From Squalus acanthias (Eukaryota), in assembly GCA_030390025.1 (NCBI GenBank), contig CM059431.1:125924001-125988000 (forward strand): DNA of 64,000 nt. The letters run 5' to 3'. The position numbers and the translations under genes are program-made. Position 1 is the first letter of the stretch; every line of letters starts with the position of its first letter. Positions 31,311-56,324 of the stretch are shown in pieces. A model generated the notes under the pieces. That model made no database searches. It saw only the letters and a program-made list of their open reading frames with translations, and was not told the DNA's origin.

Positions 31311-32471
31311 TGAACGGATAATTACTAGTCCTAGCCCCTTTAGGGCTACCCTGGATCAGGCGTATTCCCCAGACGTTCACTTTCAACTAAAGTTTGAGGT
31401 AACCGAATCCTAAAGACGCTTAATTGGGTCTGAAGGTCCAGACTATCTCTCCCTAAAGGAAAGGAACAACCTGAAGATGTTACCGTCCTCCAGATAGCAC
31501 TTTTAATAAGTTTAGCTAGACTCCCCCAGAATTCTGCAACTCCTCACCAAAGAGCGTACAGAGATTGAGTTTGTGAGTTTGATACAGAAGTATTACGTGA
31601 GACAATTCTAAAAATATATAGATTTATTAAAGAACCGACATGTAATTTACAGTTGGTGATTCAATCATAACATTAACAGTTCCAAAAACAGATATCTTTT
31701 ACAATCTTACTATCAGAGATCCTTATTCTCAAATCTTAACTTCGTTACATTTTTACAGTTCTCAGTCTTTATTCCAGGATATCCAGCAAAATCAAATACC
31801 TTTTCATACCTTTGATCCCCGAGGTACAAAAAGTTGTAGACTTACAGAGCTTGCCTCTGAAGACCGAGAATCGCTTTGCCCCTTTACAGCGAATCTGTCA
31901 TCCCACTTGAAAGTTCAATATTTATATCCTTTTTCAGTGGTATGTCCTTTGAAGTTTTCTGCTGATGTAAGCTAATTATCTCTAGTCATTTTTCTGCTGA
32001 CTTCTGCTATTCTTACAGTCAGTTCAGCTGGTAGCTTTAAGAATCGTGTTTCTACCTTTAGGTGTTCGAAGCTTATCATAAAAACGATGTGACAGCAGAT
32101 GCATCTATTTGATGTCATTCTTATCAAGGTCTTCTGTTTGTGTCTTTTTAAGATGTGTAAATTAAAAACACCTCAACCGGGTGCACCATTGTCTTCTCAG
32201 ATACCTCAGCTGGTTGTAATACAGAATCATGTCTCCTGTGTTTCATTTGATTTCATTTTTACGAAGGCATATGTTTCTTAATTTTCTGTGTTTCTTTCCA
32301 AAGTGTTGGTTTAAGACACCTTAACAGGGTGCACCATTGTGTTCTTTCCAAGGCTTCAGAATATCAGGAACCTCCAACCTCCTGTTTCAATAAGGTTATT
32401 GATTCAGTGTCAACAACTTATCCTATCTCAATAGCCTGTATGCTGTTTACAGCTTCTCCATTGTTAGGTTT

Positions 32472-34183: not shown

Positions 34184-34187
34184 GAAA

Positions 34188-35999: not shown

Positions 36000-38900
36000 C
36001 TAGAACCAGCACAGCCCGTCTACCTGTGTCCGCTCAGCTATGATGCGTGGAGGCGACCTGTGGTGGAGATGGAGGTAGAGAAACAGAAGGGCAGTTATTT
36101 GTTGGACACGGGAGCTTCTTGCACCATAATCCATACAGATGACCCTTTTGACTCGCCGCTATCTACCAAGGTCCCATTCACGCTGGCAGGGTTCACAGGG
36201 AAAGAACAGGCTGGCACGTTTTCCCTCCCGCTATCCATTCGTTTAGGAACACTTCGCCTTAAGTGGAAGTGTATACTGATGGCATGGCAAAAGGGGGGTG
36301 GAAGAGGTATTCTCGGGTCCGATCTCCTAGCGGGACACGGGATCCTCGTGGACCTCAGAAATCACTGTCTCTGGGGGGCTAAAGGTGAAAAAGGCGAGGT
36401 AATGGTAATTCAAGGGGAGGAAGAAACAGGGGTCCTGTGTACCGTACAGCCATCCGGAGGCTACGACCTCAGGCTTATGGTCGCAGATGTCCCAACGGAC
36501 ATGCAAACGTACGTGTCAGATAATATGCACGCGTTTGCAACCCACAAGCACGATTGTGGGAGGGTGGTCGGGTTTGAGGTCAGCGTAGATGGGGACCCCA
36601 TGACCCGACCCCAAAAGCAGTATAACTTCCCCAAAGAAGCAGAACCCGATATGGAGACAGCAATGTCTTCCTTGGTGCAGCAGGGCGTGTTGAGGCCGAT
36701 AGCCACACACGTGAACTCCCCATTATGGCCGGTTAGGAAGCCGGATAATTCGTGGAGAGCCACGGTGGACTACAGAGTCCTTAACAGTAACATTCCCGCC
36801 TGCGCGCCCACAGTAGCAGCAGTTGCTGACCTAATAGGGAGCATCCCAGCGTCCGCGACCACGTTCACGGTGCTGGATATCTCGAACGGTTTTTGGTCCA
36901 TCCCGCTGCGGCGAGAGGACCAGTACAAGTTTGCCTTTACGTTTAAAGGGCAACAGTACACGTGGAACTGTTTGCCACAGGGTTTCCACAATAGCCCCAG
37001 TATTTTTCATCAGTGTATGGCAGGAAGTTTAAAGGAGTTTAGTCAGCCCAATCAGATAGTACAGTATGTGGATGATTTGCTCCTATTTACGGACTCAAGG
37101 GAGGAGCACGGACCACTACTGGACGAGTTATTGGAGCTGTTAGCGAGAAAGGGTTTTAAAGTAAACCCAAAGAAAGCACGTATCGGTCAGCAGGAAGTAA
37201 AATTCCTGGGACTGACCCTACGCGCTGGGGAAAGAGTCATAGACAAAGCAAGGAGGGAGTCGGTGCAAGAATTACCGATTCCCAACAACGTAAGGGGTGT
37301 GAGGTCCTTCTTGGGACTGACCGGTTACTGCAGGGATTTTATCGAAGATTATGCGGCCACAGCGGCGCCGCTCCTCCGACTCCTCCATAAGGGGGTGGAG
37401 TGGCTTTGGGACGAGGGCTGCCAAGCAGCCTTCGAGAAGTTAAAAAGGGATCTGCAGACCGCGCCAGCCTTAGGGGCCATAGATGGGGGGAAGGAGTTTT
37501 TCCTGGAGGTAGCTGCCAGCGGAGACAGCTTAAGCGCCGTGCTGCTCCAAGAGCGTCACGGCAAGCTGAGGCCGGTTGTCTATTCATCCAGGGTATTAAC
37601 GGATGTGGAGAGAAGTTTCTCCAATTGCAAAAGGCACCTTTTAGCCACGCATTGGGCTGTGAAAAGATCAGCGATCTTCACAGGGCTCTCTCCCATCACT
37701 CTCCTCACACATCACACACCAACTAAGATGCTTCTGGATGGGAGGATTAAAGACAGGACCGTAAGCAGCGCACGCATTGCGCGTTGGACCCTTCTTCTCT
37801 CCCAGTTGGATCTTAGAGTAAAAGGTCTTTGCGAGCCCAGGCTTGCGGCCAATTTGGTATACCCCGGTACAGCCCACCGGTGTTCGGTGGAAGGGGTGTG
37901 GGACGTCAACATAGGTTTATGGGCCGGGATACATCCCACTGGGCGCGAGATTTATGTTGATGGGTCTAGCACAGTGTCTGCTGGCGAGCGACTCACAGGG
38001 TGTGGAGTTTATGACCCTGCGGCAGACCTTGCCCTGGCGATCAAGCTCCCTAGCACCATGAGCGCGCAGCAGGCTGAGCTGTCTGCCGTGGTGTACGTGG
38101 TGACCCACCCAGACATTTTCCCAACCCCATACACGATTTGCTCGGACAGTATGTTCACCTGCAATTCGTGTACGGAATACCTGGCCATTTGGTCCCGCCG
38201 CGGATACACCTCCGCGGACGGGCGACCTTTAACGGTGAAGCCCTTGCTGGAAAAGATCTTAGCCGCAGCAGTAGGGGAGGAAGGGGAGATTTTCATCCAT
38301 AAGGTGAAAGCTCACTCCTCCACAGAGCCCCGTGGGGAGGGCAACCGGCAGGCGGATGCGCTAGCCAGGGAGGGTGCCCGCGACGGCACTTTCTGGAACC
38401 CCTATAGGACCGGACCCATAGCAGCGGTCCGAGGCGGGGACGGGAATACCGGGAACACCAGGGTAGCATTGCCCCTAGACCTTAAGACCGTCCAAGCCCA
38501 GGATCCCGCCCTAAAAGCAGTCCTAAAAACGATTGCTGAGGGGAGGCAGGTAGAAGGTCCGTACAGTACGGCAACCCTCTCAGTTAAGGAAGGCATGCTG
38601 TTCCGCGGGGAGCAGTGGGTTGTGCCGCAGCAGCACAGGAGGGAATTCCTCCAGTTGGCTCACGAGGGACCAGGGGCAGGGCACCCCGGGCCCGAGGTTA
38701 CCTGGCAACGGGTAGAGCAAGCGGGATGGTGGCCGGGGCTCAGGGAACAAGTCCGCGAGTTCTGTGCAAACTGTCTTGTGTGCGCTGCAAACAACCCAGA
38801 CCCCCAGAAAAGGAAGGTGCCCATGGGACACGTAAGAAGGGTAGAGGGACCATGGCAGTCGATACAGATCGACTATATAGGACCCCTGCCCACCACCCAG

Positions 38901-40523
38901 GGAGGTTATAAATACTGCCTCGTCCTGGTAGATGTGTTTTCCAAGTGGGTGGAAGCCTTCCCTTGTCGAACAGCTACGGCACTGGGTACAGCAAAAATCT
39001 TGGTCCGGGAAGTGTTCTCGCGGTGGGGACTCCCCCGTTTCGTGGAGTCAGACCAAGGGAGTCATTTCACCGGCCAGGTGATGCAGAACACCCTCATGCT
39101 TTTGGGCATTGAAGGGAAGTGGCACGTAGCGCACAATCCCCAGTCATCCGGGATTGTTGAACGTATGAACCGGACCCTGAAGGAGAAATTGAGGAAAGAG
39201 ACTAGGAACTCGCCCCAAAAATGGGCGGAAGTTCTGCCTTTAGTCCTCATGGGGGTCCGGGCCAGTCAGTCAAAAAGTACGGGGTACTCCCCGCACGAGG
39301 TAATGACCGGCAGGCTCATGCGAACCCCCACCCATGTGCTAGCCCCGGTGCTCACTGAGGGTCAGCTTCAAGAGATCAGCAGGGACAAGTTCGCCCAAAC
39401 TCTCTTGGAGCGCCTGAAGCAAGTTTATGAGCAGGCGGCTGGGAACATGGGAAGGCAGCATCAGGGCAATCGCTTGTTGCTGGAACCCCGCAAAACGCGG
39501 GAGTGGGAAGTAGGAGACCAGGTCATGGTCAGAAACTACGCCAGAGTAGGGAGTCTGGAACCACTGTATATGGGACCCTACAACATTGTAGACAAGGCGA
39601 GTCCCATGGTTTACGCCGTAAAGGTACCTCGGCGCACTAAGTGGTTCCACATAAACCAATGCAAACTGTACCAGCCGGGTGCGCAGGGGAAAACTACAGG
39701 GGTAAATCCCGCCAATGGGAAAACACAGCCCCAGGTAGGACCACAAGGCACACAGGCAGGCGTAGCAGCTTGCATCAGAGGAAGGGACATCCCGGACGAT
39801 CATGCAGCGTTTTTCTGGAGTTGGGGGTTGGATGACGAAGAACCCAGGGTACCCTGGTCAGATGAGGATAGTGCAGATGAGCATAGTGATGATGACGGGT
39901 GGTTCCTGAGGAACGGTCTGGGGGGAATGGGGCCGATAGGTAGAGATCCACACGGGGTGGACACACAAGCTGCAGGTCCCGACAACAGGAGGGAGGAGCT
40001 AGAGGAGGCAGGGCCAGCCGCTATAGGAGCACAGAGAGTACCAATGTGGTTCCCAGAGATGTGGCCGCCCGCTTTGAACGTCCAGTCCTCAGGGGAGGCA
40101 GAGATCACGAGTGAAGGGCCGCCTGCTGGGCCGAGCAGGGCGGAGCCACGAACTGCCAGCCCCGAGGTTAGGGAGGCGGAGTCAGCGGAGGCGGAGCCGG
40201 CGACTGTGATGGAACCCCAGGTCGTCCCGTTAGAGGTCTCGGAACCCGGTCCGTCCGTCACGGAACCCCCGCCCATAGCAACTCCCCGTAGGTCAAGTAG
40301 AGAACCCCAGCCCAGGAGGATGTGGTCATGTCCCCAGACTGCCCCAAGGCGTAAAATTCAGGTTAAGATAACCCGGGTAGAGACAGGCCACATCGCAGCA
40401 GTAACAGGCTGCGGCAGATCAGAGGAAAGGGTCAGCGCAGCAACAGGCTGCGGCAGATCAGAGGGAAGGGTCAGTGCCCTCCCACCGTCGGGAAGAGCTC
40501 GCAGCAGCCTTCTCAGAATTTAA
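36000..40523 (+). CDS. pol: Pol (protease, RT, tether, RNase H, integrase, C-terminal extension), in frame with gag past a single TGA
   Basis: LLDTGA; LPQGFHNSP and YVDD; degenerate RNase H-like tether; IYVDGSS..SAQQAEL..SDS..GNRQADALA; HHCC; QIDYIG..ESDQGSHF..GIVERMN; GPY. Confidence 0.96.
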   Translation, partial: LEPAQPVYLCPLSYDAWRRPVVEMEVEKQKGSYLLDTGASCTIIHTDDPFDSPLSTKVPFTLAGFTGKEQAGTFSLPLSIRLGTLRLKWKCILMAWQKGGGRGILGSDLLAGHGILVDLRNHCLWGAKGEKGEVMVIQGEEETGVLCTVQPSGGYDLRLMVADVPTDMQTYVSDNMHAFATHKHDCGRVVGFEVSVDGDPMTRPQKQYNFPKEAEPDMETAMSSLVQQGVLRPIATHVNSPLWPVRKPDNSWRATVDYRVLNSNIPACAPTVAAVADLIGSIPASATTFTVLDISNGFWSIPLRREDQYKFAFTFKGQQYTWNCLPQGFHNSPSIFHQCMAGSLKEFSQPNQIVQYVDDLLLFTDSREEHGPLLDELLELLARKGFKVNPKKARIGQQEVKFLGLTLRAGERVIDKARRESVQELPIPNNVRGVRSFLGLTGYCRDFIEDYAATAAPLLRLLHKGVEWLWDEGCQAAFEKLKRDLQTAPALGAIDGGKEFFLEVAASGDSLSAVLLQERHGKLRPVVYSSRVLTDVERSFSNCKRHLLATHWAVKRSAIFTGLSPITLLTHHTPTKMLLDGRIKDRTVSSARIARWTLLLSQLDLRVKGLCEPRLAANLVYPGTAHRCSVEGVWDVNIGLWAGIHPTGREIYVDGSSTVSAGERLTGCGVYDPAADLALAIKLPSTMSAQQAELSAVVYVVTHPDIFPTPYTICSDSMFTCNSCTEYLAIWSRRGYTSADGRPLTVKPLLEKILAAAVGEEGEIFIHKVKAHSSTEPRGEGNRQADALAREGARDGTFWNPYRTGPIAAVRGGDGNTGNTRVALPLDLKTVQAQDPALKAVLKTIAEGRQVEGPYSTATLSVKEGMLFRGEQWVVPQQHRREFLQLAHEGPGAGHPGPEVTWQRVEQAGWWPGLREQVREFCANCLVCAANNPDPQKRKVPMGHVRRVEGPWQSIQIDYIGPLPTTQGGYKYCLVLVDVFSKWVEAFPCRTATALGTAKILVREVFSRWGLPRFVESDQGSHFTGQVMQNTLMLLGIEGKWHVAHNPQSSGIVERMNRTLKEKLRKETRNSPQKWAEVLPLVLMGVRASQSKSTGYSPHEVMTGRLMRTPTHVLAPVLTEGQLQEISRDKFAQTLLERLKQVYEQAAGNMGRQHQGNRLLLEPRKTREWEVGDQVMVRNYARVGSLEPLYMGPYNIVDKASPMVYAVKVPRRTKWFHINQCKLYQPGAQGKTTGVNPANGKTQPQVGPQGTQAGVAACIRGRDIPDDHAAFFWSWGLDDEEPRVPWSDEDSADEHSDDDGWFLRNGLGGMGPIGRDPHGVDTQAAGPDNRREELEEAGPAAIGAQRVPMWFPEMWPPALNVQSSGEAEITSEGPPAGPSRAEPRTASPEVREAESAEAEPATVMEPQVVPLEVSEPGPSVTEPPPIATPRRSSREPQPRRMWSCPQTAPRRKIQVKITRVETGHIAAVTGCGRSEERVSAATGCGRSEGRVSALPPSGRARSSLLRI

Positions 40524-40809
40524 AGGGGCCGCCCTGAGAACGGGCGGCACTGTAAAGTTATTAGGTTAAGTTTTAAGTTTTAGTTCAAGGTTAAGTTTGT
40601 AGTTTTAATAAGGCTAAGTTTGTAGTGTTTTGAACAGAAAACGATAAAATGATGGGAGTTTTAAGGCTAGGTTTAGAGGAAGTCTATTCAGCAAAGGTTG
40701 AAGTTTACGTGAGGCGAGGTCAGGGGACCCGCTCACCCTTCACAACAGCCAGAGACCTTTTTGCGAGGCTGGCTACCTCATTCTATCTGATCACAGGAAC
40801 CAAGGAAGG

Positions 40810-43161
40810 ATGGAACGACTTCTAGTATTGCTCGTGGCAATCGGATGTGGATTGGCCTATCGAGGCCACACCAAGGATGTCGTGGTGTTTGGATGTTCCG
40901 GGGACACGGCCCCCATCGCGGTGGATGGGACCGGAAGACGGAAGGCAGAGGGGACCAGCACCTATTTCCACAAGGGAAGGTGGCCAGGATGGCTGGGAAC
41001 GAACTCAACGGAGTATTCCAGCACATCGGGGTTCGCCTACAAAGAGACTTCTTTAATGTGCCCCAAAGTACGGATCATCGCACCCAGGATCAGCGTCACC
41101 GTCGGCAAACGGATTTGTTTGACCTGTAGTGGGGATGTCCCATTGAGCCGATGGTGGTGGCTGCGAAAGCTGAGCAAAACTATGAGAAACTCTTCGGTCG
41201 AGTGGGAACGACTGGGTAATAATACCCATCGGACAATTACGGGGACAGACGGACAAGTGAAAGTCTGTTGGGACAAATGGTGGGAACCGGATGAGGGGAT
41301 TTATGTATGTATGTGGGGGTCAAAGTACGTTTGCCCCAAAGGCATCTCCATATTTTTTATTAATCAGTGGCAGGATAACGGACAGGGGATGAGGTGGGAT
41401 GCGAGCACCAGGGGGTGCGGAGCCCCATTCTCCCCGATCCCAGTAAATGCCACTGAACTCATTACGCGCCCACGCAAAGCCCCGCCCACGATTCCGGTGG
41501 TTCTAGCTGAGGAAGAAGGGTGCCCTAAAACTAGTAAGGGACCCGGGAACGGTTTGGTACTGGTCCCCACAGACCAGATACTATTTCAGGGGGTACATTA
41601 CGCGGTGGCCTCGGTGATTTTAAATCTCACTGAGGTACGGTTACCAGAGTGGTGCCCCAAAAAGACGGAACAGTTGTATCAGGTCCTGTTGACCAAGATG
41701 TTCAGACAATTTTACGAGTTTGATTTTGCAGAAATTGATAAGGCAAGTTTGTACACCGCACCGCAGGAAGTTTTGGATCAAGTAGGGAGGCAAAGAAGGG
41801 GTTTGGTGAACGATGCGTTCACTGCTTTTAACACAGGGACATCTGTGGTCAACGCTCTAGACAGTGTGGAGCTGCAGACCCAGATTAATGGTTTAAAAAC
41901 ACAGTTAAAAGACATTCTAACAGATGAGAATAAAGTGGTAGGGTCGGGTCTGCATGAGGACCAAGCCATGACTCTCCATTTAAAGGAAATTATAGCAGAG
42001 CTGGAGAAACATGCGCGTACGGTAAATGCCCTGATCAGGGAAGATCGGAATGCATCCGATCAAGCTGCGCAGAACGAGGTGTGCGTGCTTTACGGGGCGT
42101 GGTTACTGGGCGAGGGCCGCAGTAATTTGGAGGATTTAAAACAAGGTTTGGTTCCGTCCTGGATAAGTAACAAACACCTACGGGCGCTCCACCCTTTTCA
42201 GAACGCATTAAGTCCGTGCCAGCTCAGGCTAGCTTCGGAAGCTTACCCAGTCCCCGTGGACTGCGGACGTTCAAACCATACTATTATGGGAATAGTATTA
42301 CGCATGCCGGTTTTGGGCAACACAGCAAAGCCCGCCCCGGTATATCGGGTAGAGAACATTGGTGTCATTCAGGGGGGAGCCCACATTCGTTATGCAGCGG
42401 TTCCACCTTACGTCATCCGCTGGGAGCAAACGATGACAGGTACAGATCTCTCTGGTTGTCGTGGCAGGGGAGCACACATAATACTGTGCCCCCAGCACTT
42501 GAATGCCTTTTTAACACCACAGTGCGGGTTCAGAACGGCTGGCGCCAAGTCCATGAATTGCACCATGGAGGCAATGGCACAAGATCATGTGCCTCCGCAG
42601 GTAGCATACATCGGGGGTGGAACATATTGTGTTACCACTGCAGCGCAACACTACCAGCATGGAAACCGTAGCCGGTGTCCGGTGAGTGACAGCAGTTTCT
42701 GTTTTAAACCCAGGGCTGAAGTTCAAGTAGCACAACAGCGAATTATCCCAATCCCTGAACCATCCACTGTTCATCTCACAGTAAAAGAGAATTTCACCGA
42801 CTTGCAGCGATTTGTCGCACATTTTGGATACCTCATTCCCCCTCTCCCTGAGCATTTAACCAAACTTCTGAAAGCCGTCGCGGTATCACAGAAACATTTT
42901 TATACATTAGAACAGAAAACTGTCGAAATAGGAACAGACATTTTGGACATAGTGGTTCCACCGTGGTGGAATCTGTTCACCAATATTGAAGTGCCTTCAT
43001 GGATCCGAATAGCCTCCCACATTTTAGTCGTCTGTCAAGTGTTTATTGTAGTGTACCTATTGTTCATACATTGTAAAAGAGACAAGCGCCTCACCAAGCA
43101 TGAAAACACGGGAGAGTGGCGAGAACGTTACGTGCGCGTGCACGATGAGAGCACCGTGTAA
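40810..43161 (+). CDS. env: Envelope glycoprotein, 783 aa: signal peptide, Ig-like segment, furin site, F-protein-like fusion subunit, TM anchor
   Basis: MERLLVLLVAIGCGLA signal; RQRR|GLVNDAFTAF; heptad repeat; Cys-rich region; ILVVCQVFIVVYLLFI TM; N-glycosylation sequons; upstream acceptor-like TTCTATCTGATCACAG ending at 40796. Confidence 0.9.
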   Translation: MERLLVLLVAIGCGLAYRGHTKDVVVFGCSGDTAPIAVDGTGRRKAEGTSTYFHKGRWPGWLGTNSTEYSSTSGFAYKETSLMCPKVRIIAPRISVTVGKRICLTCSGDVPLSRWWWLRKLSKTMRNSSVEWERLGNNTHRTITGTDGQVKVCWDKWWEPDEGIYVCMWGSKYVCPKGISIFFINQWQDNGQGMRWDASTRGCGAPFSPIPVNATELITRPRKAPPTIPVVLAEEEGCPKTSKGPGNGLVLVPTDQILFQGVHYAVASVILNLTEVRLPEWCPKKTEQLYQVLLTKMFRQFYEFDFAEIDKASLYTAPQEVLDQVGRQRRGLVNDAFTAFNTGTSVVNALDSVELQTQINGLKTQLKDILTDENKVVGSGLHEDQAMTLHLKEIIAELEKHARTVNALIREDRNASDQAAQNEVCVLYGAWLLGEGRSNLEDLKQGLVPSWISNKHLRALHPFQNALSPCQLRLASEAYPVPVDCGRSNHTIMGIVLRMPVLGNTAKPAPVYRVENIGVIQGGAHIRYAAVPPYVIRWEQTMTGTDLSGCRGRGAHIILCPQHLNAFLTPQCGFRTAGAKSMNCTMEAMAQDHVPPQVAYIGGGTYCVTTAAQHYQHGNRSRCPVSDSSFCFKPRAEVQVAQQRIIPIPEPSTVHLTVKENFTDLQRFVAHFGYLIPPLPEHLTKLLKAVAVSQKHFYTLEQKTVEIGTDILDIVVPPWWNLFTNIEVPSWIRIASHILVVCQVFIVVYLLFIHCKRDKRLTKHENTGEWRERYVRVHDESTV

Positions 43162-43583
43162 TAGGAAAATGGCGTCACTCCCGCTCGCCGCGTGCGCCGC
43201 GGAAGTTTGTACTCATTGTAAATACGTTGGAAACTCGACATGTTTAAGAGTTAGGATTTGTTTATTTTGGTGATGGTGTTGATTGTTTGGTTTTGGGTTT
43301 TGTTTTTCCTTTCCCTGAATAAAAGACAAATATACAGGTGATGCGTGAGGTATCGGCCTGGTTACGCCGGGAAGGAAAACAAGTGGTGTAAGTTTAAGGG
43401 CAAATGATGCCTACGGTGATATAAAATGTGATTTTCTTGGGAAATAAGGACGACACAGAGACCCTAGTTAAGTTAAAATTTATGGGATTAATTTACTGGA
43501 TTCGGAGTGAAATCGAGATAAGATTGCTCACCACTGTGATTTTTGATACGATAAGCGGAGTTATTCGCATCAACAGGAGGGAC

Positions 43584-45295
43584 TGTAGAATTCGCAATAT
43601 ATCGCGATTTGTTTAATAAGGAGAAAACACAAAGTTTCGTTCAAACAGCTTTTATTTCAGTAGAATGCTGTCAGGTTTAAATTGGACACAAGCAGCCTGT
43701 AAAATGGCCGCCGCACCTCGTGACAGAACATTCTAGACTTTTCAACAGGCAGACAAGATGGCGTTCCATCAAACGTTTTTTCAAGATCGATAACGATTCA
43801 GCACAGTGAAGATAATACACGAGACATTATGGGTTTACAGTATAAACATAGATACTGAAATCGGTCTCCCAGGTACAAAGGAAAGCCATTGTACCGAGTA
43901 ATCAAGGGCCCATCCAAAGGACATTAATATGTAAACTCCCAACGACTCTACGATGAGAGAGCCGTTAGCAGGTAGTTATACAGGACACTTGGAAGCCCCA
44001 AACCCCTCCAGGGAGAACACCGACCGATTTAACAATGGGAGAAATATTAACAGGTACTCAAACATTCATGAGTAGCCCCGAAACCCATTAAGGACGGAGA
44101 TCACCCATACAAGACATTTGGGCGCCAAACCCTAAACAAAAGAATGGACATTATAGTTGGGCGGGAAACGGAAGATTTTTGCACTATAATTGCAGGCCCC
44201 AAACCGTCCATTCGCTCTCTTGCCGCGCTTGCTCGCTTGCTGCTTTTATCATCGTGGCTGCTCCTGTGTTTTATCCGGTCGATTCGTAACCTCGTGGCTG
44301 CTCCTGTGTACTCGTAGTTGGGCTTCTGCGTGCCTGTTGCCTCTTCTGAAAAGACTGTTGAACTTTCTGATCCGTTCGGATCTACCTCGTGTCGCGTAAC
44401 GAAGACCTATGTTGGTAACTGGCAGCGGAACCAAAGGCCCGAGATGAGATGAGATGAGATGAGAGGAGAAGAGAAGAAGACCATATCCATCGCCACGGTC
44501 AGTAAATCCCGACCGCGCCTATAGGTCGATCAGCCAAGTTTTCTCGCCAGGAAGTTTTCTTCTTTAAACTTCTAACAAAACATATTGCATCAATGATAAC
44601 TGGACTGTGCAAACACATCGTATCAATGATATTGACAACGGTGCTCCAAGATTAAACTTTGAAGCCCACCAACAGAGGTCTTCACCACAGCGGACGGTCC
44701 AGCCTACTAGCCGGAGCAGCAGAAGCAAGTAAACAAGTGGGACCAGGAGATCTCCTGACCGACACGTGGGAGCTGCGGTGAAAAACATCCGATCAGCTAT
44801 TCGGAATTTCTCCGAGTTATTACGAGTGGTGAGCATGAGTCTCGAGATCCTACGAAGCTAGTTTAGGATAGATATTGATAGGGGAGGGTTTAAAGATTAA
44901 GGATATTTGTAATGTGTGCCCTATTTACGTTGTGCCGTTCGTTCCTCGTTTCCCTAAGATTGACTATAACCGTTTGTAAGATTGTACTGTCATTAATCTG
45001 TGCGTATGACATGTATTTCATAATTTTAAGTATCATGCAATAAAGATTTTCCATTTCGTACCATTCAAACCAAGTCTACATGAGTTTTATCTCCATTACT
45101 GCTCTCGCATCTAAGTCCAGTGTCTAGAACCGTAAGGGAGAGTGATTCGAACCACTCACAGGTGTGTCTAGTGTTCCCAGACTGGCTGGAGACCAGAACA
45201 GGCAACCAGGCCTAGACCCGCACTGACATACAGGCTGCACAGAGCCGCGTGAATCTCACAGGCTGCGAGACACGCAGGGTCAGGAATCCCTTACA
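43584..45295 (+). repeat. 3' LTR (1712 bp)
   Basis: Same length as the 5' LTR; one substitution found by eye (T32782 / C43894). Confidence 0.97.
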
Positions 45296-45666
45296 GTTTT
45301 TAGATTTTCAATCCCAGTTTGTCATGTTACAATAAGGCCAGAATTATTTCAGAGAATGGTGTATTTTTCTGAATATGGCTTATTCCTTCACACAACCCTC
45401 TTGACCAAGAAATGAACTCGAGCATTGAGTCAATGTTACTAATAAGGTTACAATAGCACATTAATTTCATGAAATTCACAAAAGCCTAATCATGTGCTAC
45501 ATGAAAATTCCTTTTAAGTCATCCTAGGACAATGTTTTGCCTTATTTTAAATTGAACACAATTTAAAAGGATGACAGGTACATTGTCATGCAATTACAAA
45601 ACAACATGTACTTAGAATGTCCAATCGGCAGATGTACGTTCTGTAGAGGTGAGTTATTCATATGAG

Positions 45667-46014
45667 TCAAGGAGACGTCATTTGGAAGTAGCTGAAGCTT
45701 GACACGCTGTTCCTTCGATCCAGCGTGTGGACACATTCTTGTTTTCGTAAAGGCCTTGCCAGGCGCTCAGTTGATTCCATCTTCATCCGCGGTGTTTTCC
45801 TCCTTCGTTGAAGTAACTTGTTGATCTTTCTTTGTTTCGGTTGTGGCTTTTCGCGAATCCAATTCCTGAGGCGTTGCCAAGCATCGTGTGGAGGAGTCGG
45901 CGACACCGTCTGACTGACCGTCGTCAGTAGTTCGATCGCATCCATTTCCTGTGTCGTGCTCCAAGCTGGGTCTTGAAAGACAGTGTACAACTGCACCTTG
46001 TATTGTTCCTCCAT
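45667..46014 (-). pseudogene. Possible env leader remnant of the foamy-like provirus
   Basis: ATG-initiated ORF overlapping the pol 3' end where env would start. No recognisable motif; under 300 bp remain before the LTR. Confidence 0.35.
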
Positions 46015-48943
46015 TCCGGTATCCCGCAGGACATCTTTTGAGATTGTCTATGGAGACAGTTTTAAGAATATGCTTGCCATTCGGCTGATTAATATGTATT
46101 TTAACTGTTCTTTTGTTAATAACAGTATGTATTTGAACAGGTTTTTTCCACTTTGGTTTTAAACCAGGTTTTTGCTCAAACTTCTTTTCCTGTACCCATT
46201 CTCCTACTAGGGGTTGCCATGCTTTGTTTGTCAATTTTTTCTGCCTATTTGCCTCCCTTATCCTCTGATCAATTTGATGAATCTCCTCTGTTATTTCTTT
46301 TTTTAAATCTAACTGTCGCTGTCGGGTCAAGGACTCAGAGAGTGCAGAGGCAATAAAAGAACTATGGGTATGCGGTGTATGCATCTCAACCCCATACATC
46401 AGATAATATGAAGTTTTAGGGGACACTGTCCCTGATGCAGATGCGGGCACATTATTAAGTGATAGCTGCACCTCTGGAATGACGGTGGTCCACTTATTTC
46501 CCCTGATTCTCAACAGTTTGACCAATAGCTTTTTTACTTCCTGGTTTTTACGTTCCACCAGCCCCGCTGATTGCGGATGACGTGGCGTGCTGTGCTCTAA
46601 CCCAATCCCCCTTTGTTCGCAGTAGTCTTTGAAGACCTTGGAGACAAAGGCTCCGTCTTTAACAGAGTGTAAGATTTTGGGTGCACCAGCTACAGTAATT
46701 ATGTCAGTAATAGCATTGGCGAGTTCGTTTTCCGAAACAGTTTTTGTGGGGACCAGCCAGCAGAAGGAAGTGCATCCATCTACACAAACGAGAACATATC
46801 TGTATCCAAAAGACGGGGGAAGTGGTCCAATAAAGTCAATAAAGAATTTTCCCATTGGCTCTTCAGCTTTCACAGGAGCCAATGGTGGTAGCTTAATTAG
46901 TGATGATTTATTGATTAAATAGCATGGCTCACAATTTGCCACGTATGTTTTACAGGCCTTAAGCATGCCTGGCCATCAATATAAGGGGGTCAATTTGCAG
47001 AATGTTGTTCTGGCACCACAATGTGCTAGACCTATGCCCTCGTGAGCTTCTTTTACAAGCTGTTCTCGTTTGTGTCTCGGGGGTACTTCTCTGTTTTCCT
47101 TGGGCAACTTAACTAGCACAATACCAGTAGGGATTTCCGAATAAAAGTACTTTGGTGGATATCCTGGTGGATTCTCTTTTGTTGGGTCTAATAGCTGAAT
47201 CAGTTCCTCATCCTGATTAGCTGCCCGTTCTGCCCTAGTGATTACACTAATATTGGCAGGCCTCTCTTGAGGGGATGTCATGCAGACCGAACGTTTCACT
47301 TGTTCATCTGCAAGACTGTTTCCTTTTGAGTGTACTGTCCCAGTGGTATGCCCGTTTACATGAAACACCTGAAAATTCTGTTTCTCCATTCTCGAACGGA
47401 GAATGTCTTCCCACAATGACTTATGTTTTATGGGTTTACCCTTATGATTGGTAAAATTTGTTTGTTCTCAGAAAACTAGATCTTGGTTATATCCTCTTTT
47501 ACAGTAGTCACTATCCGTACAGATTAGTGTGGGTTTAATAGGGTCTGCCTTTTCTAAAGCATACCATAATGCTGCAGCTTCAGCATATTGTGCTGTCTTA
47601 TGGCCAAGGGGTATGGACAGTAATTCTTCTGGATAAAAAGAATAGGAATCTCGAAAAGTCCCTACTACTATCCCCATGCCAACTGAGGATTGTTGGGATG
47701 TCCCTTTTTTAATCGTCATTGAAGATCCATCGCAGTAAATGACTTGATGGTATTCTGTAAGCGGTCTCACAGGCATTTGTCTGATTCCCTCCTCCGTATC
47801 ATCATCCTCCTATGATGGGGAGATGCTCTAAGTCCATTTCCGGGGAGAGGAATTTAAAAATGAGTGTAGGATCATTCAAGAATGATGCCCATTTATCATA
47901 TTGGATCTGGGTGGCTCTTTTTTATGTTGATTAAATACCCAGCTGTTGTAAGTCTGGATAAAACACTATCAATGGCTTTCAAGTGTTCTTGGAGATTGTC
48001 ATGTGACAGATATATGTCGTCCACATAAGAATTGACGTTAGGTAGGTCTTTTAAAAGGTCAATGATGTGGGCTGAAAAGAGAACGGGACTGTTTTGAAAT
48101 CCCTGGGGCAATCTGGTCCAGCAGTGCTGATGGCCATCGGGTCCAGTCATCACTGTTTTTGGCCAATTAGCTTTTTCGATTGGATGTGACCAGAAGCTGT
48201 TTGCCAGATCAATACAAGATTTATATTTTTTCCTCGTGATTCCAGAGAAGGGCTGTGGAATTTTGCTGTTGTGCAGTATGTGGGGCCATTACCCTAGTTA
48301 AGGCTATATAATCGACCACTAATCGCCACCTCCCATCTGGTTTAGCAACACCAAACAATGGTGAATTAGTTCTAGATGACATTTTGAATAAGACACCTTG
48401 TTCTGTTAGTTCTTTGAGCGTTGTTAGCAGATCTATTTTTCCTTTGTGGTCTTGAATAGGCCACTGTTTTTTAGGTTTGTGCCAGCCAGCATCAAATGGG
48501 TGGGGTTTGATGTCTATCTTTCCACATTGATTTGGATGGCGTTGTAGATACGGGTAGTATCTATTAATTAGTTGCTCGAGGAGGTCTTTGCCTCCCCCCG
48601 CTAGGCAAGTTCGATCAAGCTGTGTCCGAACATGTTTTTCCCTGTCATCCTGGTCTGTGGATGCTTCTACAGGTCTGGTTGAGATTTTAAGGTACTGTTT
48701 CATGTCTGGTTGTCTTATAATGAGGGAACAGGTCAATTGTGGTACCAGTCCTACATCTAGGGTCACCGTGATTCCATATATGGTAATAGGTATTTTGTAA
48801 AAATTAATTATTTTGGTTTTGTCTTGTGTGAATCCCCCTAATGGTCTTTTACAAATTGGGCTCCCCAAATCTGTCCACTTAGTTTTTATAATTGCAAGAT
48901 CTATTACAGTGTAATCAGCTCCAGTATCAAACAGGGCCTTCAC
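45767..48943 (-). pseudogene. pol: Foamy-like pol (protease, RT, RNase H, integrase) with stops, frameshifts and an internal deletion
   Basis: LFDTGA; KPDGRWRLVVDY; CWTRLPQGFQNSP; YVDDIYLSHD; YCDGSS..GMGIV..IPLGHKTAQYAE; NQDEELIQLL..GYPPKY; KFFIDFIGPLPPS.GY.YVLV; HPQSAGLVERKN. Confidence 0.93.
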
Positions 48944-49071
48944 TTATGTGTTTGTGGGCAAGGTTGCCAAGGCATAGGGGAATTCAAGAGGCCCTGGCTG
49001 GGTGCCCGGCCTTCCATCCTGGGATTGTTCATCCTCAGGATCCTGAGCTTCATTTGCTGCTTTGTCTTTAA

Positions 49072-50589
49072 TTATTTTAACTGATTTTTGTTCCTCCCTC
49101 TTGGGGGATCATGTTTTCCAGATATCTTAGGGGGTTTGTCGGACATTTTATTATCTTGACGATCCTCCTGTTGGGGTGGACGTTGGTTCTGCCAGGAATC
49201 TTTTTGATCCCCATTTCGGTTTTCCCGGTATCCTCCCGTGGCTCTCTGATAGTTTTGGCCAGTGTAAAAGCTGTCCCCATAGGGAGTCCACTGTCCTTCG
49301 CTTTCCTTTCGAGGTCTAGCCCCTCATCTATCCCATCTTTCCGGGGAGAAATCTTTCTCGTATTGTGGGCGAGTTGGGGGTGTAAACCTTCTGGAATACC
49401 CTCTTGGGGGTCCCGAGCCACGAGTTTGTGTCTGGGCGGGGTGGACTTGAGACTTGGGTCTATACAGTCCTTGTTTCTGAATACCAAAGGTACCTTCTCC
49501 GTTTTTTTTATCCCTAGTTTCTGATCTCATTGTAGGTTTAGTTTGGGGTAGACCTAAGAGGTCATGATTTAATTTGATAATACGATTGACATTATCCCAT
49601 CTTTGTTGGTTATCTCGATAATCGTTTAGAGCACCCTCACAGGCAAGTTTGAGGGCTGTATTTTGGTATTGATTGGCCAGGCAACCATGGACAATGTCCC
49701 AGTTATCCTGTGTAAGTACTTTGCCTAATCTGTAGACAGCTACCAGCCCTTTAGTTGTGGCTGTATTAGTGAGTATTTCCTTGATGGAACCCATTACATG
49801 CCCTCCCTGAGTTGCCGTGAGAACATAGGCGTATATTTGAACCCAGTTGTTACACTGGTTTAATGGGGGAATTAAGTCTGAACTTAGTATCATTTGTAGT
49901 AGTTGCCTCAGGTGTTGGGCATTCCAATCTTGGCAACAGGTTTCCAATTTATCAAGGTTAGTTAGAATCCAGCAGGTTTTTTCCTGGCTGGTGTTTCCTG
50001 GTCTACCACACATTGTGTAGATAGAGCTCAGGTTTACGTGACCTAGGGGCGCAATGTGTGATTGCTGGAGTTGGCTTACTGGGCCAGTAATCATTGCACC
50101 TCCAGCATTTAGATAAGATTGAGCTAGTACCTGTTGGCATTGATTATAATGGATTCTAAGCTGTCTATAGTTTTCTCGAAGATTCTGGTCATTTATTTCT
50201 TCATGAGTTTGCCACCTTAACCGGAATCCATGGCCCCCAGGAGCATAGGCTGCTCCGGGTCCTACTATTCAGCCATGGTTGCCACCACCTTGTTGGGCAC
50301 CGTTCATTAGGCCTCCCAATTGTGCGGGTGTGCACCTTATCATTAAGGAATTTTGTGGATTTGGAGTATTTGTTTGATTATCCCACTGGATATTCTGTAT
50401 CGCCTGGTTCTGGGGATCAACATCAATCGTGCCATGAGTTCTAACGACTCCATCGGTATCAAAGACTTCTATTTCAAAAATTATCACTTGGTTTTGTGGA
50501 GGTACAGGGATAGGATTATTTCCCCTCATAAAGCAATCATTTGAATTTCCTAATAAGAAGACTTGGCCAATTCCGACAGGGTTTGCCAT
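49072..50589 (-). pseudogene. gag: Foamy-like gag (one frame, two internal TGA stops)
   Basis: ORFs 50269-50589 and 49324-50094 are in frame. LTQDNWDIVHG resembles the spumaviral (D/N)NWDLVWG block. G/R-rich C-terminus, no CCHC knuckle. Confidence 0.82.
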
Positions 50590-50832
50590 TTCGTCAGGAC
50601 CTAACCTCGGTTACGGTTTAATATGAACTTTATAAGAAATTTCTAGACCTCAATGGTATATTGAGGGAGGTCTGATTTAAGTTCTACAAGGCCTGATCAG
50701 GGACTTGTTGTCTCTAGAGACTTGAATCTGGGTCTTAGTACCACTGTCAGTAAGACACTCCTTCTATACTTAACAATCTACAAGATGGATATAGATATAA
50801 ATATAAGTATAGGTTCTGTATCAACTCGATAA

Positions 50833-50850
50833 CACACACGTTGGGCGCCA
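50833..50850 (-). promoter_or_regulatory. Primer binding site, tRNA-Lys1,2
   Basis: Minus strand TGGCGCCCAACGTG, 2 nt after the LTR end; 14-nt match to the foamy virus PBS. Confidence 0.92.
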
Positions 50851-50852
50851 AC

Positions 50853-53800
50853 TGAAGGGATAATTACTAGTCCCAGCCCCTTTTGGGCTACTCCAGATCA
50901 GGGGTATTCCCCAGACGTTCACTTTCAACTAAAGTTTGAGGTAGCCAAATCCTAAAGATGCTTAATTGGGTCTAAAGGTCCAGACTATCTCTCCCTAAAG
51001 GAAAGGAACAACCTAAAGATGTTACTGTCCTCCAGATAGCACTTTTAATAAGTTTAGCTGGACTGTAACGTTCCGGATATTATGAGGGTCCGTGACGTCT
51101 CGGACCGTGTTTTCAGAATCCTCAAAGGGGAGGGGGAACAATCACAAGTCGTGGTACACATCGGTACCAACGACATAGGTAGGAGAAGGGACGGGGATTT
51201 AAAACAGGAATTTAGGGAGCTAGGTTGGAAGCTGAGAGCCAGTACAAACCATGTTGTAATTTCTGGTTTGTTGCCGGTGCCACGTGCTAGCGAGTTGAGG
51301 AACAGGGAGAGAGTGCAGATAAACACGTGGCTGCAGGGATGGTGTAGCGGGGAGGGTTTCAGTTATGTGGATAATTGGAGCACATTCTGGGGAAGGTGGG
51401 ACCTGTACAAACAGGACGGTTTGCACCTGAACCAGAGGGGCACCAATATCCTGGGAGGGAAATTTGCTACGGCTCTTCGGGGGGGTTTAAACTAATTTGT
51501 CAGGGGGATGGGAAACAGGGCTGTAGTCCAGGAGCCAGTGGTGAGTGCAGGGAGGTACTGAGGAGGGTATCAAGGTCGCAGGAATGTACCGGCAGACAGG
51601 AAGATGGCTTGAAGTGTGTCTACTTCAATGCAAGGAGCATCCGGAATAAGGTAGGAGAACTTGGAGCGTGGATTGGTACTTGGGACTACGATGTGGTGGC
51701 CATTACGGAGACATGGTTAGAACAGGGACAGGAATGGTTGTTGGAAGTTCCGGGGTATAGATGTTTCAGTAAGAGTAGGGACGTTGGTAAGAAAGGTGGA
51801 GGAGTAGCATTGTTAATCAAGGATAGTTTAACAGCGGCAGAAAGGCAGTTCGAGGGGGATCTGCCGTCTGAGGTAATATGGGCTGAAGTTAGAAATAGGA
51901 AAGGAGCGGTCACGTTGTTAGGAGTTTTCTACAGGCCCCCAAATAGTAATAGAGATGTGGAGGAAGAAATTGCAAAGCAGATTATGAATAGGTGTGGAGG
52001 TCACAGAGTAGTTGTCATGGGTGACTTCAACTTTCCAAATATTGATTGGAACCTTTATAGGTCAAACAGTTCAGATGGGATAGTTTTTGCACAGTGTGTG
52101 CAGGAGGGTTTCCTGACACAATATGTGGATAGGCCGACAAGAGGTGGGGCCACGTTGGATTTGGTACTGGGTAATGAACCGGGCCAAGTGTTTGATTTGT
52201 ATGTGGGAGAGCACTTTGGAGATAGTGACCACAATTCGGTAACTTTCACTATTGCAATGGAGAGGGATAGGGCCATACGGCAGGGCAGGGTTTATAATTG
52301 GGGGAGGGGTAATTATGATGCGATTAGGCAAGAATTAGGGAGTATAAGATGGGAACAGAAACTATCAGGGAAAGGCACAAACAAAAAGTGGAGCTTTTTC
52401 ATGGAGCAATTACTGCGTGTCCTTGATAGGTATGTCCCTGTCAGGCAGGGAGGAAATGGCCGAGTGAGAGAACCATGGTTCACAAAAGAGGTTCAATGTC
52501 TAGTCAAGAGGAAAAAGGAAGCGTATGTAAGGATGAGAAAACAAGGTTTAGTTGGGTCGATTGAGGGGTACAAGGTAGCAAGGAATGAGCTAAAAAAAGA
52601 GCTTAGGAGAGCTAGGAGGGGGCATGAGAAGTCCTTGGCGGGTCGGATCAAGAAAAACCCCAAGGCCTTTTACTCTTATGTGAGAAATAAAAGAATGACC
52701 AGGGTGAGGGTAGGGCCGGTCAAGGACAGTAGTGGGAACTTGTGCATGGAGTCAGAAGAGATAGGAGAGGTGATGAATGAATACTTTTCGTCAGTGTTCA
52801 CCGAGGAGAGGGGCCATGTTCTTGAGGATGAGAGTGTGATAAAGGTGGATAGGCTGGAGGTGGTAGATGTTCTGAGGGAAGATGTTTTAGCAATTTTGAA
52901 GAACCTGAGGGTCGATAAGTCCCCTGGGCCAGATGGGATATATCCTAGGATTCTTTGGGAGGCAAGGGAGGAGATTGCAGAGCCTCTGGCTTTGATCTTT
53001 GGGTCCTCACTGTCCACGGGAATGGTGCCAGAGGACTGGAGAGTGGCGAATGTTGTTCCTCTCTTCAAGAAAGGAAATAGGAATGACCCTGGTAATTATA
53101 GGCCGGCTAGTCTTACTTCGGTGGTTGGTAAGATAATGGAAAAGGTCCTGAGGGATAGGATTTATGACCATTTGGAAAGGGGCAACTTAATCAGGGATAG
53201 TCAACACGGATTCGTGAAGGGTAAGTCTTGCCTAACAAATTTGATTGAATTCTTTGAGGAGGTAACTAAGTGTGGAGATGAAGGTAGAGCAGTTGATGTC
53301 GTATACATGGATTTTAGTAAGGCGTTTGATAAGGTTCCCCATGGTCGGCTCATGAAGAAAGTAAGGAGTTGTGGGATAGAGGGAAATTTGGCCGATTGGA
53401 TAAGTAACTGGCTATCTCATAGAAGGCAGAGGGTGGTGGTGGATGGAACATTTTCGGACTGGAGACCAGTTACCAGCGGTGTGCCACAGGGGTCGGTGCT
53501 GGGTCCTCTGCTGTTTGTGATTTTTATCAATGACTTGTAGGAGGGGACTGAAGGGTGGATCAGTAAATTTGCTGATGACACCAAGATTGGTGGAGCAGTG
53601 GATGAGGTGGAGGGCTGTTGTAGGCTGCAAAGAGACATTGATAGGATGCAGAGCTGGGCCGAAAAATGGCAGATGGAATTTAACCCTGATAAGTGCGAGG
53701 TGATTCATTTTGGTAGGGCAAATTTGAATAAGGATTACAGGGTCAACGGCAGTGTTCTGAGGAACTTGGAGGAGCAGAGGGATCTGGGGGTTCATATCCA

Positions 53801-55516
53801 CAGATCTCTGAAGGTTGCCACTCAAGTGGATAGAGCAGTAAAGAAGGCCTATGGTGTGTTGGCGTTTATTAACAGAGGGTTTGAGTTTAAGAACCGTGAG
53901 GTTATGCTGCAACTGTACAGGACCTTGGTGAGACCACATTTGGAATATTGTGTGCAGTTCTGGTCACCTCACTATAGGAAGGACGTGGAAGCATTGGAAA
54001 GAGTGCAAAGGAGATTTACCAGGATGCTGCCTGGTTTGGGGGGGGAGGTCTTATGAGGAAAGATTGAGGGAGTTGGGGCTTTTCTCTTTAGAGCGGAGGA
54101 GGATGAGAGGCGACTTAATAGAGGTTTATAAGATGATGAGGGGGATAGATAGAGTGGATGTTCAGAGACTATTTCCTCGGGTAGAGGCAGCTGTTACAAG
54201 GGGGCATAACTATAAGGTGCATGGGGGGAGATATAGAAGGGATGTCCGAGGTAGATTCTTTACTCAGAGAGTGGTTGGGATGTGGAATGGACTGCCTGCT
54301 GTGATAGTGGAGTCGGACACTTTAGGAACTTTCAAGCGGTTATTGGATAAGCACATGGAGCACACCAGAGTGATAGGGAGTGTGATAGCTTGATCTTGGT
54401 CTCGGACAATGCTCGGCACAACATCGAGGGCCGAAGGGCCTGTACTGTGCTGTACTGTTCTATGTTTCTATGTAACTCCCCCAGAATTCTGCTACTCCTC
54501 ACTAAAGAGTGTACAGAGATTGAGTTTGCGAGTTTGATACAGAAGTATTATGTGAGACAATTCTAAAAATATATAGATTTATTAAAGAACCGACATGTAA
54601 TTTACAGTTGGTGATTCAATCGCAACATTAACAGTTCCAAAAACAGAAATCTTTTACAATCTTATTATCAGAGATCCTTATTCTCAAATCTTAACTTTGT
54701 TACATTTTACAGTTCCCAGTCTTTATTCCAGGATATCCACCAAAATCAAATACCTTTGATACCTTTGATCCCCGAGGTACAAAAAGTTGTAGACTTACAG
54801 AGCTTGCCTCTGAAGCCTGAGAATCGCTTTGCCCCTTTACAGCGAATCTATCATCCCATTTGAAAGTTCAATATTTATACCCTTTTTCAGTGGTATGTCC
54901 TTTGAAGTTTTCTGCTGATGTAAGCTAATTATCTCTAGTCATTTTTCTGCTGACTTCTGCTATTCTTACAGTCAGTTCAGCTGGTAGCTTTAAGAATTGT
55001 GTCTCTACCTTTAGGTGTTCGAAGCTTATCATAGAAATGGTGTGACAGCAGATGCATCTATTTGATGTCATTCTTACCAAGGTCTTCTGTTTGTGTCTTT
55101 TTATGATGTGTCAATTAAAAACACCTCAACCGGGTGCACCATTGTCTTCTTAGTTACCTCAGCTGGTTGCAACACAGAATCGTATCTCCTGTGTTTCATT
55201 TGATGTCATTTTTACGAAGGCATATGTTTCTTAATTTTCTGTGTTTCTTTCTGAAGTGTTGGTTTAAGACACCTTAACAGGGTGTACCATTGTGTTCTTT
55301 GCAAGGCTTCAGTCTATCAGGAACATGCAACCTCCTGTTTCAATAAGGTTATTGATTCAGTGTCAACAACTTATCCTATCTCAATAGCCTGTATGCTGTT
55401 TACAGCTTCTCCATTGTTAGGTTTTTAGATTTTCAAGCCCAGTTTGTCATGTTACAATAAGGCCAGAATTATTTATAGAATGATGTATTTTTCTGAATAT
55501 GGCTTATTCCTTCACA
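50853..55516 (-). repeat. Foamy-like 5' LTR, split by a CR1
   Basis: Matches the 3' LTR with 14 mismatches in the first 212 bp counted by eye. TATAAA at 54879-54874, GTAAGT at 54798-54793. Confidence 0.92.
51065..54474 (+). mobile_element. Young 5'-truncated CR1 LINE (ORF1 esterase C-terminus; ORF2 with a stop and a frameshift)
   Basis: [64 protein letters not shown] tail; possible ACT duplication. Confidence 0.95.
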
Positions 55517-55520
55517 CACC

Positions 55521-56324
55521 ATCCATTGCTGCATCCTGGAGTTCACAGGGGCTCTCTACAGAAGGAGAAGGGACTACATTTCTTTCCCCATCACCAGAGA
55601 GAAGCAGGACGAGCATGCACGTGGCTTTGCCAGGATAGCGGGCTTCCCCATGGTGCAGGGCGCCATTGACTGCACCCACGTCGCTTTGCAGGCACCCCAT
55701 AACAATCCTGAGATTTTCCGTAACCGCAAATGCTACCACTCACTTAATGTGCAGTTGGTGTGCGACCACAGACAGCGAATCCTCAATGTTAATGCCCGCT
55801 ATCCTGGCAGCAGCCACGATGCCTTCATCCTGCGCCAGACCGGTGTGCCAGCACTCTTCCAGCCACCACATCAAGCTCGTGGCTGGCTGGTCAGAGACAA
55901 GGCCTATCCGCTCTCCACCTGGCTCATGACTCCCCTCCCCAACCCCAACACTTCTGCCCAGCACTCATAGAATGAGAGCCGTCCCGTCACCAGGAGCATC
56001 ATCGAGCAGACCATCGGAGTTTTCAAGCAATGGTTCCACTGGCTTGACCGCTCAGGAGGAGCCCTCCAGTACTCGGCTGAGTGGTTGTCCCTTTTCATCA
56101 TGGGGTGCTGCATGCTGCACAACTTGGCCATCATGAGGTCCCAGCCATTGCCACCAGGCAAAGTGGGACCACATCAGGAGGAGGAAGAGGGAGAGGAGCA
56201 GGACGAGGAGGAAGAGGAAGACGAAGAGGAGGAATAGGGGGAGGAACGAGGGAGGAGGCAGCCACTAAATCGGCCTTCTGGAAGGGTGGTGCGTGACCGC
56301 CTCATCAGACTGCGGTTCCAATAA
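55521..56324 (+). pseudogene. Harbinger transposase, C-terminal DDE part
   Basis: Continues SQFA|IHCCI; GAIDCTHV, NRK.YHSLNVQLVCD, PGSSHDAFIL, DKAYPL, IEQTIG, CCMLHNLA; internal TAG at 55968. Confidence 0.93.

Follow-up and report, generated by a model that had tools for sequence, protein, structure and literature searches.

How could a foamy virus without an envelope gene become one of hundreds of related proviruses in a shark genome? The question is raised by a minus-strand provirus at 31311-55516 of a 64,000-nucleotide stretch of Squalus acanthias DNA (assembly GCA_030390025.1, contig CM059431.1, positions 125,924,001 to 125,988,000 of the forward strand), hereafter the window, to which unlabelled coordinates refer. 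An earlier note on this DNA, made from the sequence alone, had recognized an endogenous foamy-like virus and suggested that the copy mainly extends sampling for the deep history of spumaviruses. That view understates the locus, which is one of hundreds of related proviruses that have lost env and whose gag-pol layout is unlike that of mammalian foamy viruses; the note had remarked on neither the absence of env, nor the high copy number, nor the in-frame gag-pol junction. After analyzing the window, the 3.7-Gb genome and published relatives, we consider it probable that this dead provirus represents a family which carries one env deletion and spread via intracellular retrotransposition in the germ line, with Pol made by Gag-Pol readthrough of an in-frame TGA.

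The foamy identity of the provirus was recovered from its domains. Every motif quoted in the earlier note was found on the minus strand: DNWDIVHG in Gag, YVDDIYLSHD in the reverse transcriptase (RT), GMGIV..IPLGHKTAQ in ribonuclease H (RNase H) and DEELIQLL..GYPPKY in the N-terminal extension of the integrase. Its description of Gag was likewise confirmed, as there is no CCHC zinc knuckle and the C-terminal third is 22% glycine plus arginine. The gag gene (49016-50589, minus strand) encodes the foamy capsid domain, HDLLGL at the YXXLGL site and a G/R/Q-rich tail, and is broken by stops near 50270 and 49325 and a frameshift near 49107. The pol gene (45767-49012, minus strand) encodes a protease with DTG, RT, RNase H and an integrase with SH3; it contains stops near 48945, 47469 and 46977 and frameshifts near 48245 and 47811, and about 570 nt that are present in most copies are absent near 47915. 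With both genes interrupted, the window provirus is dead. Pfam matched Gag_FV_central (PF20672, E 1e-14), Spuma_A9PTase (E 2.5e-7) and SH3_11 (E 8e-10), together with the RT, RNase H and integrase domains of the window pol. The best match of the integrase in the PDB was the integrase of prototype foamy virus (PFV; E 3e-65, next family 3e-10), and the gag read-through matched PFV Gag 5M1H (E 1e-5).

The phylogeny gave the same answer. An IQ-TREE analysis of 30 RT-connection rows grouped the window and its family with every foamy and foamy-like row (100/99) and, more narrowly, with simian and feline foamy viruses, Pleurodeles, the catshark Scyliorhinus torazame and an unnamed 1687-aa protein in a subclade (96/97); the teleost and chimaera rows lay outside this subclade. 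The catshark protein is 45% identical to the family over RT. The probable elasmobranch host suggested in the earlier note is consistent with a catshark sequence being among the nearest named relatives, with the CR1 content and with the 3.7-Gb size of the genome. The 30 rows were chosen from a 172-row set, whose FastTree agreed with the placement, and they do not include coelacanth, reptile or bird sequences or the cartilaginous fish endogenous foamy virus (CFEFV). The named foamy references from word-based protein searches comprise simian foamy Pol only; PMC12386078 was consulted for references. A grouping of the family with four class-I-like rows, a label inferred from an MLVIN_C domain and a fish Gag-Pol name, was rejected (p-AU 5e-6). 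Endogenous retroviruses (ERVs) of the ERV-L type are represented at best by one long-branch stork row of unnamed type, and that row fell outside the foamy clade. Pol belongs to the foamy clade, not outside the spuma viruses, and by phylogeny the window holds a genuine endogenous foamy virus.

What the copy lacks is env. The pol stop lies just 372 nt from the 3′ polypurine tract (PPT). Elsewhere in the genome, foamy Env was detected at six loci by Pfam in a strict first look and at seven by direct protein search, with the Env domain PF03408 above cut-off in close env-bearing relatives of the window family. In gag-pol, the six env-bearing loci that were compared share 84-93% identity with the window, and none of 60 gag-selected loci contained env. 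The deletion is common to the family. Among 60 stretches with both arms of the env junction, a set that takes in the window and one duplicate, the spacing was short in 58 and exactly identical in 52; the other two are an env-bearing locus and an env-less junction with an insert. The deletion is also compound, with about 34 nt of internal env (45705-45738, minus strand) left between two breaks, the first 29 nt past the pol stop and the second at a 5-nt microhomology. Adjoining it, an env stub of about 92 codons from the N-terminal leader region (45739-46014, minus strand) overlaps the 3′ end of pol and ends before the membrane anchor; in locus L034 the same frame continues into a transmembrane stretch and a Foamy_virus_ENV match. 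On the other side, 45403-45704 (minus strand) is what is left of the segment that separates env from the 3′ long terminal repeat (LTR); it is 76-80% identical to the same stretch in env-bearing copies. Splicing was ruled out as the source of the deletion, because neither break has a GT donor and the second lies at the 5-nt microhomology. In the integrase tree, five env-bearing rows formed one clade (0.996) apart from the 71 other rows.

The 45403-45704 remnant includes the end of a putative accessory region. In the env-bearing locus L031, a 144-codon frame with a cysteine cluster follows env (6595-7029 of that locus, minus strand); it has no Pfam match, is shortened in other env-bearing loci and is gone in the window copy. 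Pfam applied to the post-env frame of an env-bearing locus gave no Tas or Bet match in this family. These observations suggest a stepwise loss, first of the accessory gene and then of env.

The env-less copies greatly outnumber their env-bearing relatives. All 150 scored integrase candidates reached at least 86%, and 150 scored of 264 gag candidates contained 151 matches. A pattern across the env-deletion junction had 268 exact genomic matches (control 0) and recovered 45 of the 65 known env-less loci; therefore, the 268 matches imply a total of about 390, which may include assembly duplicates. Set against seven env-bearing loci, this is a ratio of about 50 to 1, env having been lost in about 98% of proviral copies. 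A pattern for the U5 end of the LTR had 2,769 exact matches (control 0), and the total of LTR ends may exceed 6,000, given that a comparable pattern recovered 45 out of 105 ends already known. Of 20 sampled LTR ends, 15 belonged to solo LTRs flanked by a 4-bp duplication, and env-less types were the nearest match for all 20. In two-LTR copies, the flanking duplications differ between loci and are exact over 4 bp in 19 of 25. The family thereby combines the features of an env-less megafamily, namely one common env deletion, independent integrations and copies far in excess of env-bearing kin.

The LTRs also bear on age. Divergence between paired LTRs was 0.030-0.093 in env-bearing copies (n = 5) and 0.012-0.090 in env-less copies (median 0.032, n = 38), and the LTRs of env-less subfamilies are 20-25% diverged from env-bearing LTRs. 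The window pair, compared piecewise, differs at 58 of 1254 sites (K2P 0.048). With age taken as K/2u and u set at 1e-9 per site per year, a value that is illustrative and not a confirmed rate, the window copy would date to about 24 million years ago, or earlier if shark rates are slower. For an orthologous copy of this exact insertion in other samples, no bridging contig was present among the matches listed. Solo LTRs of the family were also seen nested in other family members, env-bearing ones included (L037, L032 and L085).

How Pol would be made is suggested by the junction between gag and pol. In 32 of 53 copies, the distance from gag to the protease is divisible by three, most often 783 nt. 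The 27 copies with this modal distance have a single stop in common in the gag frame, 28 codons ahead of the DTG; no Met lies between this stop and the protease, and the other two frames close before the protease. The junction codon (49013-49015, minus strand) is in frame with both genes and has a hairpin on either side. It is a sense codon in the window copy; in 65 other copies it reads TGA in 48, TGC in 8, TGG in 7 and otherwise in 2. Both env-bearing copies that retain the junction codon are alike in context, so the gag-pol layout predates the loss of env. The unnamed 1687-aa relative of the 96/97 subclade is a single open Gag-Pol frame. Mammalian foamy viruses make no Gag-Pol fusion, but PFV tolerates an in-frame one (PMC3185757). 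With one frame, a TGA and no Met, the shark layout does not appear to be the separate pol frame with its own start that a spliced mRNA would serve. Judged from the reading frames, readthrough is likely the simplest reading of this in-frame gag-TGA-pol arrangement.

Further features of the junction were observed. Among 600 windows across 3 kb, the eight with the most stable folds all lie at the flanking hairpins. The only unpaired base between the two hairpins is the third of the gag stop, which reads G in seven and C in eight of 65 copies (15 together), compared with 3.4% variation at neighbouring non-CpG sites. These stop-to-sense variants are dispersed over the tree, with few in the main RT-deleted clade. 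Their descent as single inherited lineages was unsupported (12 changes versus 12.6 in shuffles), in a part of the tree that is poorly resolved; an RT error site, editing and selection for fusions are candidate explanations. A frame of about 150 codons (49077-49526, minus strand) overlaps the gag tail, has no common stops in the 27 modal copies and ends before the protease.

Further deletions, again common to several loci, define subfamilies that lack RT (27 loci) or gag-RT (14 loci). Where the 3′ end was visible, 36 of 37 gag-selected copies had kept RNase H-integrase and 17 had kept RT, and of 15 integrase-selected copies, 10 had kept the leader and none had kept gag. Foamy vectors have the packaging elements CAS-I and CAS-II (PMC5035957, section 2.2), and the retention of the leader and the 3′ pol region in the deleted subfamilies matches these two elements, which by analogy points to a putative role in packaging. 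Four possibly-RNA runs contained family sequence and the gag-RT deletion joints; they are no evidence of expression.

Foamy Gag lacks a membrane-targeting signal. The capsids of foamy viruses are assembled and undergo reverse transcription in the producer cell and do not bud without Env (PMC3185757), and PFV re-integrates within producer cells (PMC3185757, PMC3705263). With budding strictly Env-dependent and re-integration available, the loss of env would make a retrotransposon without any change in Gag. We therefore propose the following putative mechanism. An env-bearing foamy virus, as the env-bearing loci show, entered the germ line. One descendant then lost nearly all of env through two deletions at short microhomologies that spared pol, perhaps by template switching of RT. 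The env-less genome would have returned to the nucleus and re-integrated, giving rise to the hundreds of proviruses observed with their own 4-bp duplications. Subfamilies without RT or gag-RT were copied in trans while keeping the leader and the 3′ pol region. Most insertions were finally reduced to solo LTRs, and the window copy later received a long interspersed nuclear element (LINE) and another ERV in its LTRs.

This mechanism must be weighed against other routes to the same copies. Env-less genomes could be defective particles that received Env in trans from a co-circulating infectious foamy virus and reinfected the germ line, a route raised for fish elements by Aiewsakun and Katzourakis (PMC5512871, section 6). 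The overlapping LTR ages of env-bearing and env-less copies suit such a helper, and the further-deleted subfamilies prove that complementation in trans occurred. However, we consider this route improbable, since about 390 env-less loci stand against seven env-bearing ones, the env-less copies form a long series of distinct subfamilies whose LTRs are far from the env-bearing LTRs, and the two types are unmixed in the integrase tree. Copies made by the host, as segmental duplications or LINE-made processed copies, would account for the tandem pair at L095 and for some matches, possible assembly duplicates, that have identical frames and lie on unplaced contigs. Because the loci, spread over at least 20 large contigs, each have two full LTRs and a 4-bp duplication that differs from locus to locus, host-made duplication is largely refuted and, as an account of the family, scarcely credible.

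The retrotransposition itself could also have proceeded as described while Pol came from a spliced mRNA, with an acceptor past the TGA and translation beginning either at a start codon supplied by an upstream exon or at a non-AUG codon. The stretch from the TGA to the protease motif does contain AG dinucleotides, the TGA lacks the UGA-C context seen in the younger ERV nested in the window, and the packaging pattern is foamy-like. This variant is nonetheless unlikely in our judgment, if somewhat less so than a helper virus. There is no separate overlapping pol frame and no Met, the G or C at the third base of the stop, well above nearby variation, creates open fusions, and PFV tolerates an in-frame fusion (PMC3185757); no such splice joint was found in the four possibly-RNA runs, though contigs cannot show absence.

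Several points weigh against retrotransposition with readthrough, which we nevertheless prefer. The intracellular route may be peculiar to primate foamy viruses (PMC3814592, PMC3705263). The overlap in LTR divergence between env-bearing and env-less copies leaves room for an infectious helper, and because the LTR-end pattern was derived from an env-less copy, the solo-LTR sample is biased to env-less types. The tree of env-less copies is star-like. In the gag-pol-complete env-less copies, the only clear purifying selection is in the RT core (shared changes 0 nonsynonymous and 5 synonymous, versus 58 and 17 for singletons; p 0.001); it was absent in gag and integrase, and the pooled p was 0.06. 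Concerning readthrough, the stability of the junction hairpins does not exceed that expected from base composition (z -0.6 to -0.9), and the branch that unites the family with the 1687-aa relative is supported at 89/91 only.

The signals for reverse transcription were partly as expected. The primer-binding site (PBS; 50837-50850, minus strand) had been assigned to tRNA-Lys1,2 in the earlier note; it does match the 3′ end of the genome's own tRNA-Lys(CTT), but over 14 of 18 nt only. Most copies match over 14 of 18 nt and one env-bearing copy over 17 of 18; no better-fitting tRNA for the 14-nt variant was found among 100 listed of 239 tRNA-like matches. The env-bearing copy L038 has the 18-nt form of the site, and most copies have the 14-nt form (50833-50850 in the window). 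Normal plus-strand copying of the tRNA should restore a full PBS. As the 14-nt form is common all the same, priming or strand transfer may be unusual in this family. The 3′ PPT (45393-45402, minus strand) adjoins the LTR with a GGG/GGTG-TG border as in foamy viruses, and 41 of 52 such borders in the family read GGGG|TG or GGTG|TG. An 11-nt purine run in the integrase (46181-46191, minus strand) was placed by alignment with PFV Pol at the position of the foamy central PPT; it differs in sequence from the 3′ PPT and is not a copy of it.

The provirus itself is longer than first supposed. The earlier note was right that two LTRs exist, but the range it gave, 45393-50852, is the internal region alone, in which the gag-pol fragments lie; self-BLAST located the LTRs outside that range, each split by a later insertion. 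The 5′ LTR (55516-50853) consists of a U5/R part (50853-51092, minus strand), in which CA is followed by 2 nt (GT) before the PBS, and a U3 part (54474-55516, minus strand, from self-BLAST). Between them lies a 5′-truncated CR1-type LINE (51093-54473, plus strand), identified by reading frames and Pfam as the end of an esterase ORF1 and an endonuclease-RT ORF2. The 3′ LTR (45392-31311) begins with the start of U3 (TGTGAAG; 45296-45392, minus strand), which is 96% identical to 55421-55518 and whose start was set from other copies. Beyond a 12.8-kb ERV, it continues with the rest of U3, R and U5 (31311-32471, minus strand), a part that ends in TTCA, lacks about 37 nt near 31520 present in other copies and is 93-95% identical to 50852-51064 and 54475-55432 by self-BLAST. 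The 4-bp target-site duplication claimed earlier is present but imperfect, CGCC at 31307-31310 versus CACC at 55517-55520, with a single transition at a CpG; as stated, the duplication is exact in most other two-LTR copies. Degraded transposase-like sequence flanks the provirus (30900-31310 and 55520-56300), which from its likeness we take to be Harbinger-like.

The ERV nested in the 3′ LTR (32472-45295, plus strand) is young and not foamy. Its 1.71-kb LTRs differ at 1 of 1713 sites and are flanked by a GTTT duplication, and both its gag-TGA-pol (631 + 1507 codons) and its env are open. Its Pol is 51% identical to a Xenopus element and groups with frog elements outside the foamy clade. The env frame of 819 codons contains a furin-type site and shows weak similarity to an Ig domain (E 0.58); it had no match in the PDB and one unnamed Atlas match at 0.84. 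A lokiretrovirus was considered and set aside, as Pfam gave no fusion-glycoprotein match (for background, see PMC7947760). The LTR of the nested ERV was covered in one of four DNA runs, whereas the foamy LTR was abundant in all four, which carry four organism codes; the nested ERV is therefore likely the more recent family. A reverse-strand fragment at 222-873, 76% like its LTR, is an older relative.

How does the shark family compare with known systems? It resembles mammalian foamy viruses (PFV, simian and feline foamy viruses) in Pol, 38-39% identical over 92% of its length, in its foamy capsid and protease families, the lack of any Cys-His box, a tRNA-Lys PBS, the 4-bp duplication and the GGG-TG border of the PPT, and also in the foamy Env of its relatives and the leader and 3′ pol kept in deleted copies. 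It differs from them in having gag and pol in one frame across a TGA, in the loss of env from nearly all proviral copies, in the absence of a Tas/Bet match, in a central purine run that does not duplicate the 3′ PPT and in the shortened match of the PBS. In env-less ERV megafamilies such as ERV-L, IAP and MusD, env loss was followed by a large rise in copy number and by non-autonomous derivatives. The shark family shared all three features, but it lies inside the foamy clade, its env-bearing source lineage is still in the same genome, and no change in Gag would be needed. In 2023, Wang, Chen and Cui reportedly described CFEFV, which by its title is an endogenous foamy virus of cartilaginous fish; the likeness goes by title only, and the catshark protein falls in the same subclade as our family. 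Foamy-like ERVs of cartilaginous fish were already known (PMC5512871, PMC6955096, PMC10699275); foamy endogenisation has been described as rare (PMC10581153, PMC3386198). Fish and amphibian elements (AciFLERV, AliFLERV, NviFLERV, CoeEFV and CmiFLERV) belong to the same wider clade and share the G/Q/R-rich Gag tail, the 4-nt duplication and the GGGTG border (PMC5512871, PMC5210030), the last two being given for foamy-like ERVs in section 3.4 of PMC5210030. In contrast, the fish elements were called high-copy at 9 and 23 elements and bear env (PMC5512871), and the teleost and chimaera sequences lie outside the subclade that holds the shark family. In the literature consulted, with CFEFV known by title only, we found neither a high-copy foamy family without env nor an in-frame gag-pol of foamy type described.

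Three traits distinguish foamy viruses from all other retroviruses: Pol made from a spliced mRNA, budding that depends on Env, and rare endogenisation. An in-frame gag-TGA-pol within the foamy clade makes the order in which the foamy traits arose testable, and the deleted subfamilies offer a natural map of the RNA segments needed in cis. As a tentative proposal, and one we hold with more doubt than confidence, early foamy Pol may have been a readthrough Gag-Pol fusion, with the spliced pol mRNA arising later and the two-part packaging signal being older; the shark-type lineage may likewise be the first natural foamy virus shown to have turned into a retrotransposon with thousands of insertions. 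An env-less family about 50 times as numerous as its env-bearing source would be a natural counterpart of the retrotransposition of PFV in culture, and it would extend to spumaviruses the rule that loss of env is followed by amplification.

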